Positions 1 through 4,949 of a stretch of 5,492 nt of DNA are shown piece by piece. Numbering within the stretch: the first letter of the stretch is position 1; each line of letters starts with the position of its first letter. Source of the stretch: Escherichia phage lillemer; sequence record MN850599.1. One strand, 5' to 3'. Made by a program: the position numbers and the translations under genes. The notes under the pieces were generated by a model that did not search any database, had not been told where the DNA came from, and worked only from the letters and a program-made list of their open reading frames with translations.

Positions 1-845
1 CCATGTTCCGGTACGAAGAAGCGAGGAACAGAGTGACGGAATGTTTGCTGGACGCGGCCAGAGAATTGACCTAATGAAGTTTGGTCAGTGCCGTCGATAT
101 CATAGCCAGAAGCCCAGAAGTTAGAGCGCATAAGCAGAAGAGGACGATTATCAGCGTCATAGTGAGTTTTGCCACCGAACGAAGAGATTACGTCACGGTA
201 ACGTTGCATGAAGTAGTCACGCTCTTGGTCAGTGTGAAGTTGGGCGTAGGCAGCTTGAAGACCCATGATATCAATGGAGGTAGCGCCAGTAGTCATAGCG
301 CGGGTAATTTCCGTTTGAGGAGGAAGAGGCGCAGACCAGATGTTTTTTAAGTGACAGCAGCGGAAGCCGTGACGACGGTCGTCGTCGTTTAAGTTAGATG
401 GGTTTGCCTCAGTACGGTCAGCCATCCAAGGAGCTTTGAAGTAGTTATTGTAAATATTGAGATAGCCTTGGTGCAGGAACTTGGGAACCTTGCCGTCAGC
501 AGAAGGGATTACACCAAGATAAGAAGCACTGTCGACATATTCGCCAGTGGTTACAGGGTTAAGAGATGCGGCAGCAACGCCAGTTTTCATAAATTGAATC
601 CATGCATCGCCATAGATATGACGGTGTGGAATGTAGAAAGTGAAGTAATCAACAGTTGAGTCAATAGCCAGGCCGCGACGCAGAGGGGATAAGCGTAAAG
701 CACCAACAGCGTCAAGCTGGAAAGAATCACCAGCGATAACAGGGGTCCATGATGCGACTTTAAGGCGACCAATAGCGCCAGTGTTGAAGACCAGATGTGA
801 TAAATCAATTGCATCACGAGAGGCAGAAGTTTGAACATTAGACAT
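1..845 (-). CDS. F: Major capsid protein F, N-terminal segment (partial; starts at ATG 845..843 and runs off the window start)
   Basis: ATG at 845..843 preceded by AAGGA about 8 nt upstream. Hand translation gives MSNVQTSASRDAIDLSHLVFN..., resembling recalled phiX174 F N-terminus (MSNIQTGAERMPHDLSHLGF). Codons at the window start (plus 3..35) read ...HSVPRFFVPEH, which abuts the start of the C-terminal segment at the other window end. Not in the ORF track, consistent with a frame that has no stop before the window edge. Only the two ends were translated by hand, not the interior. Confidence 0.85.
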   Translation of the reverse strand, partial: MSNVQTSASRDAIDLSHLVFNTGAIGRLKVASWTPVIAGDSFQLDAVGALRLSPLRRGLAIDSTVDYFTFYIPHRHIYGDAWIQFMKTGVAAASLNPVTTGEYVDSASYLGVIPSADGKVPKFLHQGYLNIYNNYFKAPWMADRTEANPSNLNDDDRRHGFRCCHLKNIWSAPLPPQTEITRAMTTGATSIDIMGLQAAYAQLHTDQERDYFMQRYRDVISSFGGKTHYDADNRPLLLMRSNFWASGYDIDGTDQTSLGQFSGRVQQTFRHSVPRFFVPEH

Positions 846-863
846 TTTATATCCTTAAATAGA

Positions 864-881
864 GTGGGACCGTGGTCCCAC
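864..881 (-). terminator. J-F intergenic stem-loop (7-bp GC-rich stem GTGGGAC/GTCCCAC, 4-nt loop) followed by T-rich tract; candidate T_J-like terminator or mRNA-stabilising hairpin
   Basis: Viral strand reads TAA(J stop)-CCTTCTAT-GTGGGAC-CACG-GTCCCAC-TCTATTTAAGGATATAAA-ATG(F). Inverted repeat seen directly. A GC-rich hairpin occupies the same J-F position in phiX174 (recalled). Confidence 0.55.
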
Positions 882-889
882 ATAGAAGG

Positions 890-976
890 TTAGAATTGTG
901 AGCCGCCAACGTACCAGAGGCGGGAGCCTTTCTTGTTGCCAGCGGAGCCGCGGCGATATGATTTGCCTTTAGCCAT
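890..976 (-). CDS. J: Small basic DNA-binding/packaging protein J (28 aa)
   Basis: Hand translation from ATG 976..974: MAKGKSYRRGSAGNKKGSRLWYVGGSQF, stop TAA at 892..890. Very basic, C-terminal RLWYVGG motif matches recalled phiX174/G4 J. Start overlaps D stop as TAATG. AAGGA SD about 10 nt upstream. Confidence 0.85.
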   Translation of the reverse strand: MAKGKSYRRGSAGNKKGSRLWYVGGSQF

Positions 977-1256
977 TACATGATTCCTTGTGCACGGAGT
1001 TTAGCGCGGATGTTGTCTTCGGCACCTTCGAGGACGTCTTTACAGCCGGCGCGGACACGGAGAACGAAAGCGAAGAGTTCGGAAGCCTTAACTGGGGATT
1101 CAACGCCATTGACGATGTTTTCAGTAAATTCGGCTCCTTCCATGATGAGACAAGCGGTCTGGGTGTTGACCGGATGAACGTAGTAAGCGATAACAGCAGA
1201 AATAAATTCAACAGGAGCAGGAAAGCGAGGATACCCGACAAAGTCCAGTGTTCCAT
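969..1256 (-). CDS. E: Lysis protein E (95 aa), embedded in gene D in a different frame
   Basis: Track ORF 969..1313, trimmed to internal ATG at 1256..1254 (GAGG about 11 nt upstream). Product MEHWTLSGILAFLLLLNLFLLLSLTTFIRSTPRPLVSSWKEPNLLK... has an N-terminal hydrophobic helix and an RP(L)VSSWK segment like recalled phiX174 E. Lies wholly within D (+ J start) in an alternative frame, as in phiX174. Confidence 0.85.
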   Translation of the reverse strand: MEHWTLSGILAFLLLLNLFLLLSLTTFIRSTPRPLVSSWKEPNLLKTSSMALNPQLRLPNSSLSFSVSAPAVKTSSKVPKTTSALNSVHKESCNG

Positions 1257-1431
1257 ATACGCAGGCCTCGACAGCGCGGCGGGCGCGGGAGCGGTCAGTA
1301 GCAATCCAGACACGGTCGCCAGTTAAGAATTCGAAGTCGTCTTCGGTAAGGTCGAGGACGGATGAGGCTTGAATCATTTTGATAGAAGCGATTGCAGTTT
1401 GAAAGGCTACAGCAGATTCGTTGGAGTTCAT
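976..1431 (-). CDS. D: External scaffolding protein D (151 aa)
   Basis: Track ORF 976..1431. Strong similarity to recalled phiX174 D (ASIKxIQASxVLDLTEDDF, VWIATDRSRARR, YGTLDFVGYPRFPAPVEF, YYVHPVN, ACLIMEGAEFTEN). ATG 1431..1429 overlaps C stop (ATGA). AAGGA SD about 9 nt upstream. Confidence 0.93.
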   Translation of the reverse strand: MNSNESAVAFQTAIASIKMIQASSVLDLTEDDFEFLTGDRVWIATDRSRARRAVEACVYGTLDFVGYPRFPAPVEFISAVIAYYVHPVNTQTACLIMEGAEFTENIVNGVESPVKASELFAFVLRVRAGCKDVLEGAEDNIRAKLRAQGIM

Positions 1432-1688
1432 TTAGTATTTCCTTTGTTGTTACGGGTTGTTTGTGTGGGGGATAGTACCCCCCGTTCGATTAATATGTCA
1501 ACTAAAGATTGTTTGCCATGTACGAAATGTTCTTCGTAGCGGAACCAGTCCTTAAGAAGAGCGCCCAGCATGTTAAGCCATTTTTCCTCGTCAAGGGCAT
1601 CAGCCTTAGAGAGTATTGCGAGTTGATGGCGAAAGGTTGAGAAGTAAGACCCTCTCGAGCTCTTTAGTGCAAGATTGAATTTCTTCAT
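1428..1688 (-). CDS. C: Protein C (86 aa; switch from dsDNA replication to ssDNA synthesis/packaging)
   Basis: Track ORF 1428..1706 begins at a GTG; the ATG at 1688..1686 gives [58 protein letters not shown]..., closely matching recalled phiX174 C. The ATG overlaps the A stop (ATGA), as in phiX174. Confidence 0.88.
1472..1501 (-). promoter_or_regulatory. Candidate sigma70 promoter pD (TTGACA-N18-TACTAT) inside gene C, upstream of D
   Basis: Viral strand: TTGACA (plus 1501..1496), 18-nt spacer, TACTAT (plus 1477..1472), about 40 nt upstream of D ATG. Same hexamers and position as the phiX174 pD promoter as recalled. Confidence 0.6.
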
Positions 1689-1770
1689 TTTCCACCAGCA
1701 GTCCACTTCGATTTAATTCGTAAGCAAGCAGTAGTAATTCCTGCAGCAGCAAGGTAGTTTTTGGTTTCAT
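1606..1770 (-). CDS. K: Protein K (54 aa), overlapping the A/C junction in a third frame
   Basis: Hand translation from ATG 1770..1768: [54 protein letters not shown], stop TAA 1608..1606. ELLLL(V/A)YELNRSGLL and LSPSTN-like segments match recalled phiX174 K. ATG overlaps B stop (TGATG). Too short to appear in the ORF track. Confidence 0.7.
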
Positions 1771-2710
1771 CAGAAGTATCCATGAGTGTTAATTTCTGAG
1801 TCATTGAAGCGATAAAATTCTGCAGGTTGGACGCTCCGATTGTTCGGGTCAAATCGCGCATAAATTTTAGCAGATTGGTCGTTACAGGTTGCGCCGCCAA
1901 AACGGTCGCGACAGATGCTTTTGCCAGCCTCGATTTCAGCTCTTTCTTGGCGTTCTGCTTCAAGACGTTGTTGAACGGGGTCGAGTCGTAGCCCAGCTGG
2001 GTCAGTTGGATCAATGTTTCGGCGGTCAGGTGCGCCATTGATAACATCTTCATCCCGAAGTTGCGGGACATTCGGATTCTGAATAGTTTGGTTGGTAGTA
2101 GAGATATTTTGGTCTTGAGTGATGCGTTCCATTCTTTATTCCCTAGGCCTTTTGCGGCCATATCAATATCAGATTTTTTGTTAACGTATTTAGCGACGTA
2201 GAAGCCGACAGCCATATACGAGGTAGCTTTAAGGGGTTCACCCTTTGAGTCGACAGGCCAGAGCCAGCCAGCGCGCGAGAATGCGTCTTGGGAGTACCGG
2301 ACTGCGATGGGCATAGAATAGCCATAGGGCCATGTGTTTTGCAAGGAGTTTATTTGGCGATTAGTGCGTACCAGCTTACCGAAGTTAGGGTCACGAGAAC
2401 CCATAGGAAGTGTGCGCATAAGGTGCACTGCGTGGAAATGTAGACGACCGTGCTGTGTGCCATACTCTGGAACACAAAAATACTGATAGCAGTCGGCGTG
2501 TGAGTCATTAGCAGAGCGACCCTCGGCAGCAAGCACCATACGACCAATATCACGGAAGTAGTCACGAAGAGCATTGGGATTATCATAGAAAGCCTGTATG
2601 CGGTCATCGGCCAGAGTAAGAGTGTCGAATACAACATACCAGCCGTCAGTGTGGGCTTGGCGCATGGCATTCATCAGTCTTTGAACGGTAAAGCCACGGC
2701 GTGATTTCAT
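1685..2710 (-). CDS. A*: A* (in-frame internal initiation product of gene A, 341 aa)
   Basis: Internal ATG at 2710..2708 (A codon 204, MKSRRGF...) with GAGG about 9 nt upstream; same position and context as the phiX174 A* start as recalled. Expression not verifiable from sequence. Confidence 0.55.
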
Positions 2711-3319
2711 GGTGGATTCCTCAAGCATTTTTGAGCATTCATCCTTAATACCCTTCGCCTTTGCATAGTTGTAATCGGCGCGGATATCTTTAAGGGGTCG
2801 TTTAGATACGAGCTGTGACCAATGGGTGTTAACAGGTTTATCATAAAGCATACTCCAGTGGGCGTTACCTTTAGGGGTGTGGTCTATAGTGTTATTAATA
2901 TCAAGTTGTCCGAGCACGTCGTAACATTCTTGCAGTTCGTCAGCAATGGCGATGACTGTAAGGCGGTAATCCTCACCGATTTCATCAGAGAGGCGTAATT
3001 CGTTAGGGGCAGTTTGAGGGATTGGTTTACGGCGAATGATATCGTCCAGGGTAAATGTGTCAGGGTATTGAATGAGTTTTGGGTTGTGTCCTTTTTGATG
3101 GGCACGATAGGCAATAGTAGTAGCCAGTTGAGAATTTGGGTTCATGTAGAAGTCTTGAGTTTCAGGGCAGCGACGGATTCCGTTTGTCCAGTGAGCAAGA
3201 ATTTCTTCGAGTAATTTTACGCGAGTGTTTACCTGTTTCCAGATACGGAGGTTTGGGGATTGCGTGAGTGTCGACATGCCAGCGGCTTCGACGAGGGGTT
3301 TGATGAGTTCTACAGACAT
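1685..3319 (-). CDS. A: Replication initiation protein A (HUH rolling-circle endonuclease, 544 aa)
   Basis: Track ORF 1685..3319. HUH motif GRLHFHAVH (H294/H296) and catalytic tyrosine pair [10 protein letters not shown] (Y374/Y378, codons at plus 2198..2200 and 2186..2188). C-terminal two-thirds closely match recalled phiX174 gpA. ATG 3319..3317 with GGAGG SD. Contains the 30-nt origin. Confidence 0.95.
1770..2132 (-). CDS. B: Internal scaffolding protein B (120 aa), encoded inside gene A in a different frame
   Basis: Track ORF 1770..2132: ...PQLRDE..., EAERxxRxEIEAGKS, RFGGATC(N/D)DxSAxIYARFD, [12 protein letters not shown]-terminus match recalled phiX174 B. ATG 2132..2130. Stop TGA overlaps K ATG. 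Confidence 0.9.
2315..2344 (-). promoter_or_regulatory. Candidate promoter pB (TTGCAA-N18-TATTCT) inside gene A, upstream of B
   Basis: Viral strand: CTCC-TTGCAA-AACACATGGCCCTATGGC-TATTCT-ATGCCCATCGCAGT. Positionally equivalent to the recalled phiX174 region TTGCAAAATACGTGGCCTTATGGTTACAGTATGCCCATCGCAGT, about 190 nt upstream of B. Hexamers are weak; assignment is tentative. Confidence 0.35.
2879..2908 (-). other. Viral (+) strand origin of rolling-circle replication (30-nt gpA recognition/nick site) inside gene A
   Basis: Reverse complement of plus 2879..2908 is CAACTTGATATTAATAACACTATAGACCAC, identical to the conserved phiX174/G4 origin as recalled. Expected nick between G and A of CAACTTG/ATATT, i.e. 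between plus 2902 and 2901 on the '-' strand. Encodes [10 protein letters not shown] of protein A. Confidence 0.85.
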
Positions 3320-3324
3320 GTTAA

Positions 3325-3346
3325 AGCCTCCGTGTTAATGGAGGCT
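3325..3346 (-). terminator. H-A intergenic stem-loop (AGCCTCC / GGAGGCT, 8-nt loop) containing the gene A Shine-Dalgarno; T_H-like terminator / 5' mRNA hairpin
   Basis: Viral strand: AGCCTCC-ATTAACAC-GGAGGCT-TTAAC-ATG(A). 7-bp stem seen directly. phiX174 has an analogous hairpin (GCCTCCAAATCTTGGAGGC) immediately upstream of the A start (recalled). Confidence 0.6.
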
Positions 3347-3376
3347 ATTAGATAGGATTTATGATGTGATTGTCAA
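3347..3376 (-). promoter_or_regulatory. Candidate sigma70 promoter pA (TTGACA-N18-TCTAAT) between H and A
   Basis: Viral strand: TAG(H stop)C-TTGACA-ATCACATCATAAATCCTA-TCTAAT, immediately followed by the hairpin. Perfect -35 hexamer (plus 3376..3371), 5/6 match at -10 (plus 3352..3347). Same place as phiX174 pA (recalled). Confidence 0.5.
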
Positions 3377-3377
3377 G

Positions 3378-4415
3378 CTATTTGCGAGACATGTTGGAGC
3401 CTACTCCGTCGGCTTTACCATCTTTCCAATAATTGTTCCAAGTGTCAGACACAGCTTTATCAACGCCGCGAAAATAATCAACAATACCAGAAGATGCGTC
3501 ACTAATGACATTTGATACGTCCTTGGCGGTTTTACCGACCTGTGATGATGCATAACGTGAGTTTTGGACTTCCTGTTTTGAGCGGTCAGTTTCTACATGG
3601 GTGCGTTCAGTGTTAGCACGAACAGCATCAATATCAGCGCCGACTTTTCGAGTAAGTTCTTGGATTTGAGCGTTAGTAAAGTGTTGTCCTGAGGTTTGAG
3701 CCTGAGTAAGCATTTGGCGCATAATTTCAGAAGTTTGTTGTTGTTTGGTGAGGCTTGTGTTTTCGAGAATAGCGCCAACACGTGACATAGATTCCTTTTG
3801 GTTGTATTGGAGCATTTCGTTTTGAGCATATACAGAGTCCTTAGTATTCATGCGTGATGTGGCAGACTGGATACCAGCGATATCCTTTTGGGTGTCGTTT
3901 TGCATCTTAGCGATTTTGACTTGGTTGTCAAGTTGCATTTTGATTAGTTGTTTTTGGTTTTCAAAACCAGCGTCAACCATACCAGCAGAGGAAGCACCAG
4001 CGCCAGCGCGTTCCCACGGGTTGAGCTCGGGGAACGCAGAAGCAAGGTAATCTTTAGTATCCTTGCCTTTATCAGCAGCAGATTTGCCACCGAGGCCAAT
4101 TTTGTTAAGAAGAGCTTGTTGAACAGCAGAGCCGCCAGCTTGTAGAGTACCATCGAGAAGTCCTTTGCCAGCATCCTTAAGTGAGGAGACGGCAGATTCG
4201 GTAAATGTAGGAGCCGCCTGATCAGGGCTAGGCGGGTTAGGTCCCTGCATAACAGATTGAATACCTGCATTGTCAGCAGAGATAGTAGTTTCAGGGGTAG
4301 CGAAGAGGCCTTGTCCAGGAGTTGAAGGGGCGGCTTGTTTATTGCCGCCCATCAGTTTGGACATTAGACCGCCAGCAAGAGTAGAGGCGATGCCGCCAGC
4401 GATTGCACCAAACAT
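3378..4415 (-). CDS. H: DNA pilot / minor spike protein H (345 aa)
   Basis: Track ORF 3378..4415. N-terminus [19 protein letters not shown], central Gln-rich heptad region ([22 protein letters not shown]...[10 protein letters not shown]...) and C-terminus DTWNN(Y/F)WKDGKADG(V/I)GSN(M/L)SRK match recalled phiX174 H. ATG 4415..4413 with AAGGA SD spanning the G stop codon. Confidence 0.95.
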
Positions 4416-4424
4416 AGAGATTCC

Positions 4425-4949
4425 TTATTTGAGAGGTTGCAGAGTTGTGATTTCTTGGTCAACCTGATTAATTGAGATGGAGCCGTACACAGTATCGGCG
4501 ACAAATGATTTCGCAATAAGGGCAATACCTACATAAACAGGATTGCCAGAGCGAGAAAGAGTAGAGACAGTAACGCAGTCCTTAACGGACAGAGTAGTAT
4601 CAGATGATTTAAATTCCAACGGATAATAAGTAACCGCAGAGGCGGGGATAGCCGTTGGGACAGTAGCAGATTCAAACCGACAAAGAACAGGTACGAGGCT
4701 GCCGATAGTAGAAAGTGAGGCAGCAACAGAAACGACCTGATTGTCGGTATGAGAGGAGTTGTCGATAGCGACAACAGCAGAGATACCGCCTGGAGAAGTC
4801 AGGGCGGTAGTAGTTAGATTCACAAATAGATTGTCACGCGCAACGGTTGGCGTATTAATAATAGGAGCCAACGCGGCGGGAGTGACAGCCTTTGTGATAG
4901 TAGTAGTAAATTGAGGAGAATTGTGTTTAGTGACAAAGTTCTGGAACAT
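4425..4949 (-). CDS. G: Major spike protein G (174 aa)
   Basis: Track ORF 4425..4997 begins at a TTG. The ATG at 4949..4947 is preceded by TAAGGA about 9 nt upstream and gives MFQNFVTKHNS..., matching the recalled phiX174 G N-terminus (MFQTFISRHNS). VVSV, RFES..VP, VKDCVT, NxVYVG and C-terminal LQPLK are also conserved. Confidence 0.9.
   Translation of the reverse strand: MFQNFVTKHNSPQFTTTITKAVTPAALAPIINTPTVARDNLFVNLTTTALTSPGGISAVVAIDNSSHTDNQVVSVAASLSTIGSLVPVLCRFESATVPTAIPASAVTYYPLEFKSSDTTLSVKDCVTVSTLSRSGNPVYVGIALIAKSFVADTVYGSISINQVDQEITTLQPLK

Follow-up and report, generated by a model that had tools for sequence, protein, structure and literature searches.

Overlapping genes A, A*, B, K and C of Escherichia phage lillemer: a phiX174-type arrangement with an invariant B/K junction

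Overlapping genes were first discovered in the phiX174-type arrangement, and a dense block of such genes on the minus strand of the Escherichia phage lillemer record (MN850599.1) raises the question of whether this block reproduces that arrangement, how well its start/stop junctions and its K frame are preserved among relatives, and which junctions could couple the translation of neighboring genes. The window, that is, the whole stretch of 5492 nt analyzed here, is a complete Bullavirinae genome in rotated and reverse-complemented form, with all of its long open reading frames (ORFs) on the minus strand. ORFs, Pfam matches and the annotation of relatives together give the order A(A*,B)-K-C-D(E)-J-F-G-H on one strand, in line with the organization of the Bullavirinae, a circular genome of about 5.4-6.1 kb with its genes on one strand. 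In the Pfam search, scored against curated cut-offs, the products of A, B, K, C, D and J all exceed the thresholds of their families, and for F, G and H the evidence is their annotation at corresponding positions in relatives sharing 98% identity with the window.

Genome comparison places the window firmly among sequenced phages. Escherichia phage Lilledu aligns with it end to end at 98.1% identity, Lilleto, Lilleput, MG1, Lilleen and SECphi17 share 93-98% genome identity, and G4-like phages align at roughly 80-85% identity across 70-80% of the genome. The clade to which the window belongs consists of divergent gequatroviruses from Danish wastewater (PMC7552041). Lilledu carries an annotated gpA at the same relative position as A of the window and an annotated gpC at the position equivalent to C. 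What is observed directly here comprises the junctions, the reading frames, the family to which each product belongs and the persistence of the frames of B, K and C among relatives; no evidence contradicts the identification of the family or of the block, and the weak points concern mechanism alone. With high confidence, the flagged block is identified as the standard set of early and assembly overlapping genes of a Bullavirinae microvirus of the phiX174/G4 type (Table 1).

Table 1. Genes, start/stop junctions and probable promoters of the overlapping block and its immediate surroundings, in window coordinates
Feature	Position	Strand	Description
Gene A (replication initiation protein)	3319..1685	minus	544 aa; Pfam Phage_GPA, E=2.8e-60
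A* (predicted)	2710..1685	minus	341 aa; in-frame internal ATG at 2710 after GAGGA
Probable pB-type promoter	2344..2315	minus	TTGCAA-18 nt-TATTCT; inside A; homology to phiX174
Gene B (internal scaffolding protein)	2132..1770	minus	120 aa; Pfam Phage_B, E=4.6e-44
B/K junction	1772..1768	minus	TGATG; B stop TGA 1772..1770, K ATG 1770..1768, shared base 1770
Gene K	1770..1606	minus	54 aa, third frame; Pfam Protein_K, E=1.6e-16
Gene C	1688..1428	minus	86 aa from ATG at 1688; Pfam Phage_C, E=7.2e-40
A/C junction	1688..1685	minus	ATGA; C ATG 1688..1686, A stop TGA 1687..1685
Probable pD-type promoter	1501..1472	minus	TTGACA-18 nt-TACTAT; 3' part of C; scan 10/12
C/D junction	1431..1428	minus	ATGA; D start and C stop
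Gene D (external scaffolding protein)	1431..976	minus	151 aa; Pfam gpD, E=1.2e-80
Gene E	1256..969	minus	95 aa; within D, extends past D stop into J
D/J junction	978..974	minus	TAATG; D stop and J start
Gene J	976..890	minus	28 aa; Pfam Microvir_J, E=9.3e-09

Within this block, B and the beginning of K overprint the 3' third of A. The whole of B is contained in A but read in another frame (phase 2 for B and phase 1 for A, taken as the start coordinate modulo 3), and C shares the phase of B. The internal start of A* is preserved as well, its ATG and the accompanying GAGG/GGAGG site being kept in 15/15 aligned genomes, and the predicted product has the length annotated for A* in both phiX174 and ID2. 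The K product scores 60.7 bits against PF12283 (Protein_K), for which the cut-off is 25, with residues 1-52 aligning to positions 1-52 of the 56-position model. For C, a longer version starting at a GTG at 1706 (92 aa) was rejected: despite its conservation, this codon falls within AAG TGG (Lys-Trp), an invariant pair of codons in the C-terminus of A. The start retained for C is the ATG at 1688, which matches the one annotated in relatives. PMC8227390 regards K and E as genes that arose de novo by overprinting, and the C-terminus of A and the N-terminus of C as overprinted extensions.

The E product stays below the cut-off of PF04517 (Microvir_lysis; 19.7 bits versus 25, E=7.8e-4), a model that covers the variable C-terminal part only. 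As a separate observation, the position of E inside D, its frame and its MEHWTL... N-terminus match the E genes of relatives found by a search for MxxWTL, and the lengths of the E genes found in this way agree with those annotated for E in phiX174, ID2, G4 and ID18.

Direct reading of the minus strand reveals that the junction strings and coordinates reported in the earlier note are correct to the base. The description of these junctions as one-base junctions holds for B/K, and equally for D/J, which had been missing from that account, but it does not extend to A/C and C/D, which are four-base ATGA overlaps. K is indeed read in a third frame across the A/C junction (phases 1, 2 and 0 for A, C and K, respectively), with K codons 28-29 (AAT GAA) crossing the ATGA. 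The related statement that positions 1685..1688 are covered by A, C and K is accurate in that all three frames are used there, but sense codons of the three genes coincide at 1688 only; over the rest of 1688..1685, the contribution of A is confined to its stop codon. Folding of 91-nt segments gives no hint of a start-masking hairpin at B/K (z -1.1) or at A/C (z -0.02) in comparison with shuffled sequences.

Conservation of the junctions and of K was followed across 17 genomes, comprising seven members of the window's clade (including the window), Salmonella phage PJNS002, five G4-like phages, two phiX174-like phages and two alpha3-like phages. At B/K, the conserved GYF that ends B is followed by TGATG in 17/17 genomes from three genera, and the bases flanking it vary among relatives. 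K itself is intact in every one of the 17, with a length of 54 aa in the window's clade and PJNS002, 56 aa in the G4- and phiX174-like phages and 53 aa in the alpha3-like phages; neither a broken B or K frame nor closure of the K frame in relatives, the outcomes named in advance as overturning the reading, is seen in any of them. The leucine pattern of K, LL.QEL.LL..EL.R ... L..LL..LS, persists to alpha3 and St-1, where the context of the C start differs. The A/C junction reads ATGA in 14/17 genomes and GTGA in MG1, alpha3 and St-1. The C/D junction is variable: the ATGA overlap is found in the window's clade, phiX174, NC37, ID2 and PJNS002, and elsewhere it is replaced by a 1-nt gap (G4, ID41, ID12), a 14-nt overlap (ID18) or a 26-nt gap (alpha3). 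The D/J junction varies too, with a gap of 5 nt in Lilleen and 42 nt in ID41 and an overlap of 8 nt in ID18. The conservation ascribed to the junctions applies without exception to B/K and in most genomes to A/C, but not to C/D.

Openness of the alternative frames was compared in an ungapped alignment of 1236 nt from 15 genomes (identity 77-98%), with the alpha3-like pair left out. Between the A* start and the middle of C, the segment contains four further stop-free alternative-frame runs of 106, 68, 53 and 40 codons; the only alternative frames open in all 15 aligned genomes are those of B, K and C, and the four others are interrupted in 5-13 of the 15 relatives. Two of these runs were rejected as hidden genes, the 106-codon run at 2670..2353 being interrupted in 6/15 relatives and the 68-codon run at 2349..2146 in 5/15. 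The length of the K ORF was likewise discarded as an argument, since open alternative frames of 40-106 codons occur in the same segment; with length uninformative, conservation is what constitutes the evidence for K.

Selection on K was assessed by a synonymous-site test that counts Fitch steps per site on a neighbor-joining tree of 15 genomes and compares classes of sites by the Mann-Whitney test. Where A and K overlap, A third positions are K second positions, and where C and K overlap, C third positions are K first positions. In the part of A that is free of overlap (192 codons), which serves as the reference, A third positions change at 1.34 steps/site; they change at 1.19 steps/site in the A-B overlap, a marginal reduction (p=0.09), and at only 0.54 steps/site in the A-K overlap (p=5e-4), a value as low as that found in just 0.7% of sliding 26-codon windows elsewhere in A*. 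Specifically, none of the three codon positions varies within K codons 17-25 (YELNRSGLL) in the 15 genomes, as joint constraint from A and K predicts. C third positions change at 1.60 steps/site in the C-K overlap, not significantly slower (p=0.34) than the 1.80 steps/site of the reference, the part of C that stands alone. Codon-position-specific conservation, the check that had been suggested for this block, thus supports K over its N-terminal half, where the A-K overlap is reduced, and gives no signal for the C-terminal half. The leucine-rich N-terminal half of K is under purifying selection; constraint on the C-terminal half is not detectable in the C-frame synonymous-site test of 15 genomes, and the L..LL..LS pattern of this second half persists even in alpha3.

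In phiX174, K is a non-essential protein that raises burst size. Comparative genomics led to the discovery of the gene, which is described as a modulator of burst size (bioRxiv 10.1101/2020.03.05.979765), and its nonsense variants carry no fitness cost in a laboratory complete-mutagenesis assay (bioRxiv 10.64898/2026.07.25.740675). Such neutrality implies either that selection on K acts under other conditions or that the nucleotide conservation has a further cause.

These observations bear on what the K frame represents. A chance alternative-frame ORF with only a superficial resemblance to phiX174 K has next to no probability: in this T-rich genome, the coding strand commonly has alternative frames that stay open for 40-106 codons, but the idea is refuted by the Protein_K match, by residue conservation shared with K of G4 and phiX174, and by a position, frame and start junction that are identical in 17 genomes. 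Quite improbable as well, in our judgment, is the proposal that a cis-acting nucleic-acid signal combined with constraints on the C-terminus of A, rather than a functional K protein, keeps the frame open and its first half conserved, the candidate signals being the ribosome site or 5' context of C, a transcription-termination signal and a packaging signal. The most invariant stretch, K codons 17-28, does lie directly upstream of the C start and includes GGTGG, but the leucine pattern of K is retained in alpha3 and St-1 despite their different C start context, and the sites with excess conservation are third positions of A and second positions of K, as selection at the protein level would predict. 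A Rho-dependent terminator that lowers the K transcript has been proposed near the 3' end of B in phiX174 (bioRxiv 10.1101/2020.03.05.979765), which would suit such a signal; no RNA structure signal emerged at either junction, as the z-scores above indicate. Neither nonsense nor missense variants of K affect fitness in the complete mutagenesis of phiX174 (bioRxiv 10.64898/2026.07.25.740675), in keeping with a signal in the nucleic acid, whereas a phiX174 K protein and its effect on burst size were reported by Gillam 1985, as cited in bioRxiv 10.1101/2020.03.05.979765. Furthermore, K is open in 17/17 genomes when the four other alternative ORFs of the segment are not, and its product fits a curated protein family. 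K is accordingly retained here as a protein-coding gene.

Whether the junctions couple translation, as the earlier note had taken them to imply, depends on the transcripts and ribosome sites available to each gene. The probable pB-type motif precedes B by about 180 nt and follows both the A and the A* starts; its region aligns gap-free with phiX174, so that the transcription start annotated there at nt 4899 corresponds to window position 2308. This promoter is called by homology only, as it agrees with the consensus at 8/12 positions and falls below the scan threshold. The probable pD-type motif is situated about 40 nt upstream of the D start, and its -35 hexamer is kept in 14/15 genomes, with one substitution (TAGACA) in SECphi17. 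Predicted Shine-Dalgarno pairing, in kcal/mol, is strongest for A (-9.5), followed by A* (-6.2), B (-6.0), E (-5.9), D (-5.6), J (-5.4) and C (-4.9), and weakest of all starts for K (-3.1), a value near the 25th percentile of the genome background. C and D possess recognizable sites of their own, GGTGG and AAGGAA, respectively.

Seen against this background, the four-letter and five-letter junctions differ in what they could contribute. Coupling from B to K is plausible because K lacks a Shine-Dalgarno sequence and the TGATG junction is invariant in 17/17 genomes, and reinitiation by ribosomes that have just ended B is the likeliest route to K. Coupling from A to C would be limited, because pB-type transcripts carry C without the start of A or A* and because C has its own site; the A/C overlap can probably pass ribosomes on only in the case of the rarer full-length transcript. 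Coupling from C to D appears doubtful in view of the internal promoter, the ribosome site of D and the variation of this junction among relatives, and since pD-type transcripts would lack the C start, it could not account for most of the D protein. The B-K, A-C, C-D and D-J start/stop overlaps have been described for wild-type phiX174, and in a decompressed phiX174 protein C falls once the A/C junction has been pulled apart from the context upstream of it (bioRxiv 10.1101/2020.06.10.143693). This drop shows that context matters and is not proof of coupling; the literature searched yielded no direct translational-coupling experiment in phage of the phiX174 type.

By homology, expression of the block would follow the phiX174 scheme. 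Three promoters, one ahead of A, one within A upstream of B and one within C upstream of D, would give rise to transcripts that run rightward, and every gene except K would be translated from its own ribosome site. K, having no recognizable site, would most likely be started by ribosomes that have just terminated on B, a route that would tie a small amount of K to the abundant B. The ATGA strings at A/C and C/D may be regarded as compact junctions that are not required for the expression of C or D, given that such overlaps would pass ribosomes on only if the upstream frame is translated on the same transcript. A more elaborate version is a long shot: B, K and C could form a fixed-ratio translation device, in which K arises only from reinitiation after B and the ribosomes on K set the frequency of C initiation. 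On the major pB transcripts, ribosomes translating K would traverse the C site and the C start codon 82 nt downstream. If such a device existed, the act of translating K would matter as much as the K protein, and the invariance of the K frame and junction in three genera could be explained despite nonsense mutants that are neutral in the laboratory.

The opposite reading deserves to be taken seriously, although we consider it unlikely: the start/stop overlaps may be by-products of genome compaction and codon drift, with no coupling role at any junction, B/K included. ATGA and TGATG are the overlaps most easily created by mutation, C/D and D/J vary freely from one viable relative to another (G4, ID41, ID12, ID18, alpha3 and Lilleen), and MG1 has GTG in place of the C ATG. 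Against such freedom, TGATG at B/K is invariant in 17/17 genomes of three genera despite its varying flanks, an invariance that the A frame and the conserved GYF end of B force in part. All genes other than K have their own ribosome sites, but K, the one gene that stands without a site, follows the invariant junction. A fully decompressed phiX174 is described as viable in work cited in bioRxiv 10.1101/2020.06.10.143693, whereas the same preprint gives less efficient reproduction and less protein C for the decompressed phage. Reinitiation at B/K thus remains the preferred reading for K, and the remaining overlaps are viewed as compact junctions.

The finding is real and already known: the block is the classic phiX174 overlapping module, and the clade has already been sequenced. 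Its biological importance is small, and its practical value lies in annotation. The deposited records of Lilledu, Lilleto, Lilleput, Lilleen, MG1, PJNS002 and SECphi17 annotate only five or six genes or else none at all; the annotation of the closest relatives omits B, K, E, J and A*, yet sequence comparison finds all of them intact there. In addition, the comparison provides a small and clean example of split constraint within K and of a fixed junction (B/K) beside drifting ones (C/D and D/J).

Among the closest relatives, Lilledu, Lilleto, Lilleput, Lilleen, MG1 and SECphi17 share the A/B/K/C/D coordinates of the window without indels. Differences within this group include a 6-nt insertion that parts D from J in Lilleen, GTGA at the A/C junction of MG1, and K residue 44, where the window has L, four relatives have R, MG1 has C and SECphi17 has H. 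The unassigned Salmonella phage PJNS002 has a 54-aa K and an 86-aa C as in the window, and it shares with the G4-like phages a block identity of about 83-87% to the window. Of the latter, ID2 (Gequatrovirus) carries all four junctions in the form seen here, G4, ID41 and ID12 depart from the window at C/D, and ID18 departs at both C/D and D/J; K has 56 aa in G4, ID2 and ID18 as against 54 aa in the window.

The phiX174 architecture, which the block had been said to reproduce, is borne out, the same junctions being annotated in phiX174 and in the G4-like ID2. The gene order, the frames and all four junction types of phiX174 (Sinsheimervirus) are those of the window: in its annotation, B ends and K starts at nt 51, A ends at 136 and C starts at 133, C ends at 393 and D starts at 390, and D ends and J starts at 848. 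At about 77% nucleotide identity over the block, the two phages agree in the lengths of B (120 aa), A* (341 aa) and C (86 aa) and in the 86 nt between the K start and the A stop. They differ in the lengths of K (56 aa in phiX174 versus 54 aa) and J (38 versus 28 aa), and in that of A, which has 544 aa in the window and 513 in phiX174, the latter calculated from its coordinates 3981..136. The phiX174 E protein, with 91 aa, stops before the D stop, whereas the 95-aa E of the window runs into J. Greater divergence is seen in alpha3 and St-1 (Alphatrevirus), which retain the TGATG of B/K as in the window and a 53-aa K that runs across the end of A 86 nt from the K start; their A stop lies in a GTGA context, with C annotated from an ATG located 26 nt further downstream, and in the alpha3/St-1 group a gap of 26 nt lies between C and D and one of 1 nt between D and J.

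Short ATGA and TGATG overlaps, of 4 nt and 1 nt between neighbors on the same strand, are associated with termination-reinitiation in bacterial and phage operons, and the same forms occur here. In contrast to operon coupling, the frames upstream of C and D in the window, namely A and C, would be untranslated on the major transcripts from the internal promoters, and a generic coupling model would therefore fit only the passage from B to K.

In addition to the A/C junction, a second spot at which three reading frames meet lies at window positions 969..978 on the minus strand. In the window's clade, lysis gene E ends 7 nt beyond the D stop and 8 nt inside J, and because E extends past the D stop into J, the TAA of D, the ATG of J and the final E codons share bases. 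In phiX174, ID2 and PJNS002, by contrast, E terminates ahead of the D stop, while in G4 the E/J overlap reaches 32 nt. Within the clade, Lilleen carries a 6-nt insertion (TAAATATCATG) that moves the J start clear of the D stop and lengthens its E to 97 aa; since Lilleen is a viable isolate, the one-base D/J overlap is dispensable.

Coordinates of features in the window
Feature	Position	Strand	Description
Alternative-frame ORF inside A	2353..2670	minus	106 codons
Alternative-frame ORF inside A	2146..2349	minus	68 codons
Lysis gene E	1256..969	minus	95 aa
GC-rich hairpin between J and F	864..881	minus	GTGGGACCACGGTCCCAC, then T-rich tract

The A/C junction also varies, reading GTGA rather than ATGA in MG1 (OR702609), where position 1632 corresponds to window 1688. 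This change converts the C start to GTG, is silent in the A frame (AAA to AAG) and produces N28S in the K frame. K itself reaches its stop two codons sooner in PJNS002 and the window's clade, giving 54 aa, compared with 56 aa in G4 and phiX174. Specifically, the stop region occupies window 1606..1611, and the base that creates the stop falls at position three in a serine codon of the C frame (TCT AAG).

Adjoining the upstream side of the pB-type -35 hexamer, window 2345..2350 (minus strand) contains a serine codon-family switch that is polymorphic within the clade, its alleles AAC TCC (Asn-Ser) and AAT AGC differing at three neighbouring bases. The TCC allele is present in the window, Lilleput, Lilleen and SECphi17, and the AGC allele in Lilledu, Lilleto, MG1 and every G4- and phiX174-like genome, a distribution that suggests mosaicism or recombination inside the clade. 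The two alternative-frame ORFs inside A were considered as conserved genes and rejected, because the longer is broken in 6 of 15 relatives and the shorter in 5 of 15.

Deposited annotations of the closest public relatives (L001, L003-L007 and L013) list only 5-6 genes, and none for SECphi17, yet these genomes carry intact, though unannotated, copies of B, K, E, J and A*. Additionally, the PJNS002 record begins C at an ATGATG, with the start set downstream by one codon. The J–F hairpin with its T-rich tract is positioned like the phiX174 terminator 3' of J.
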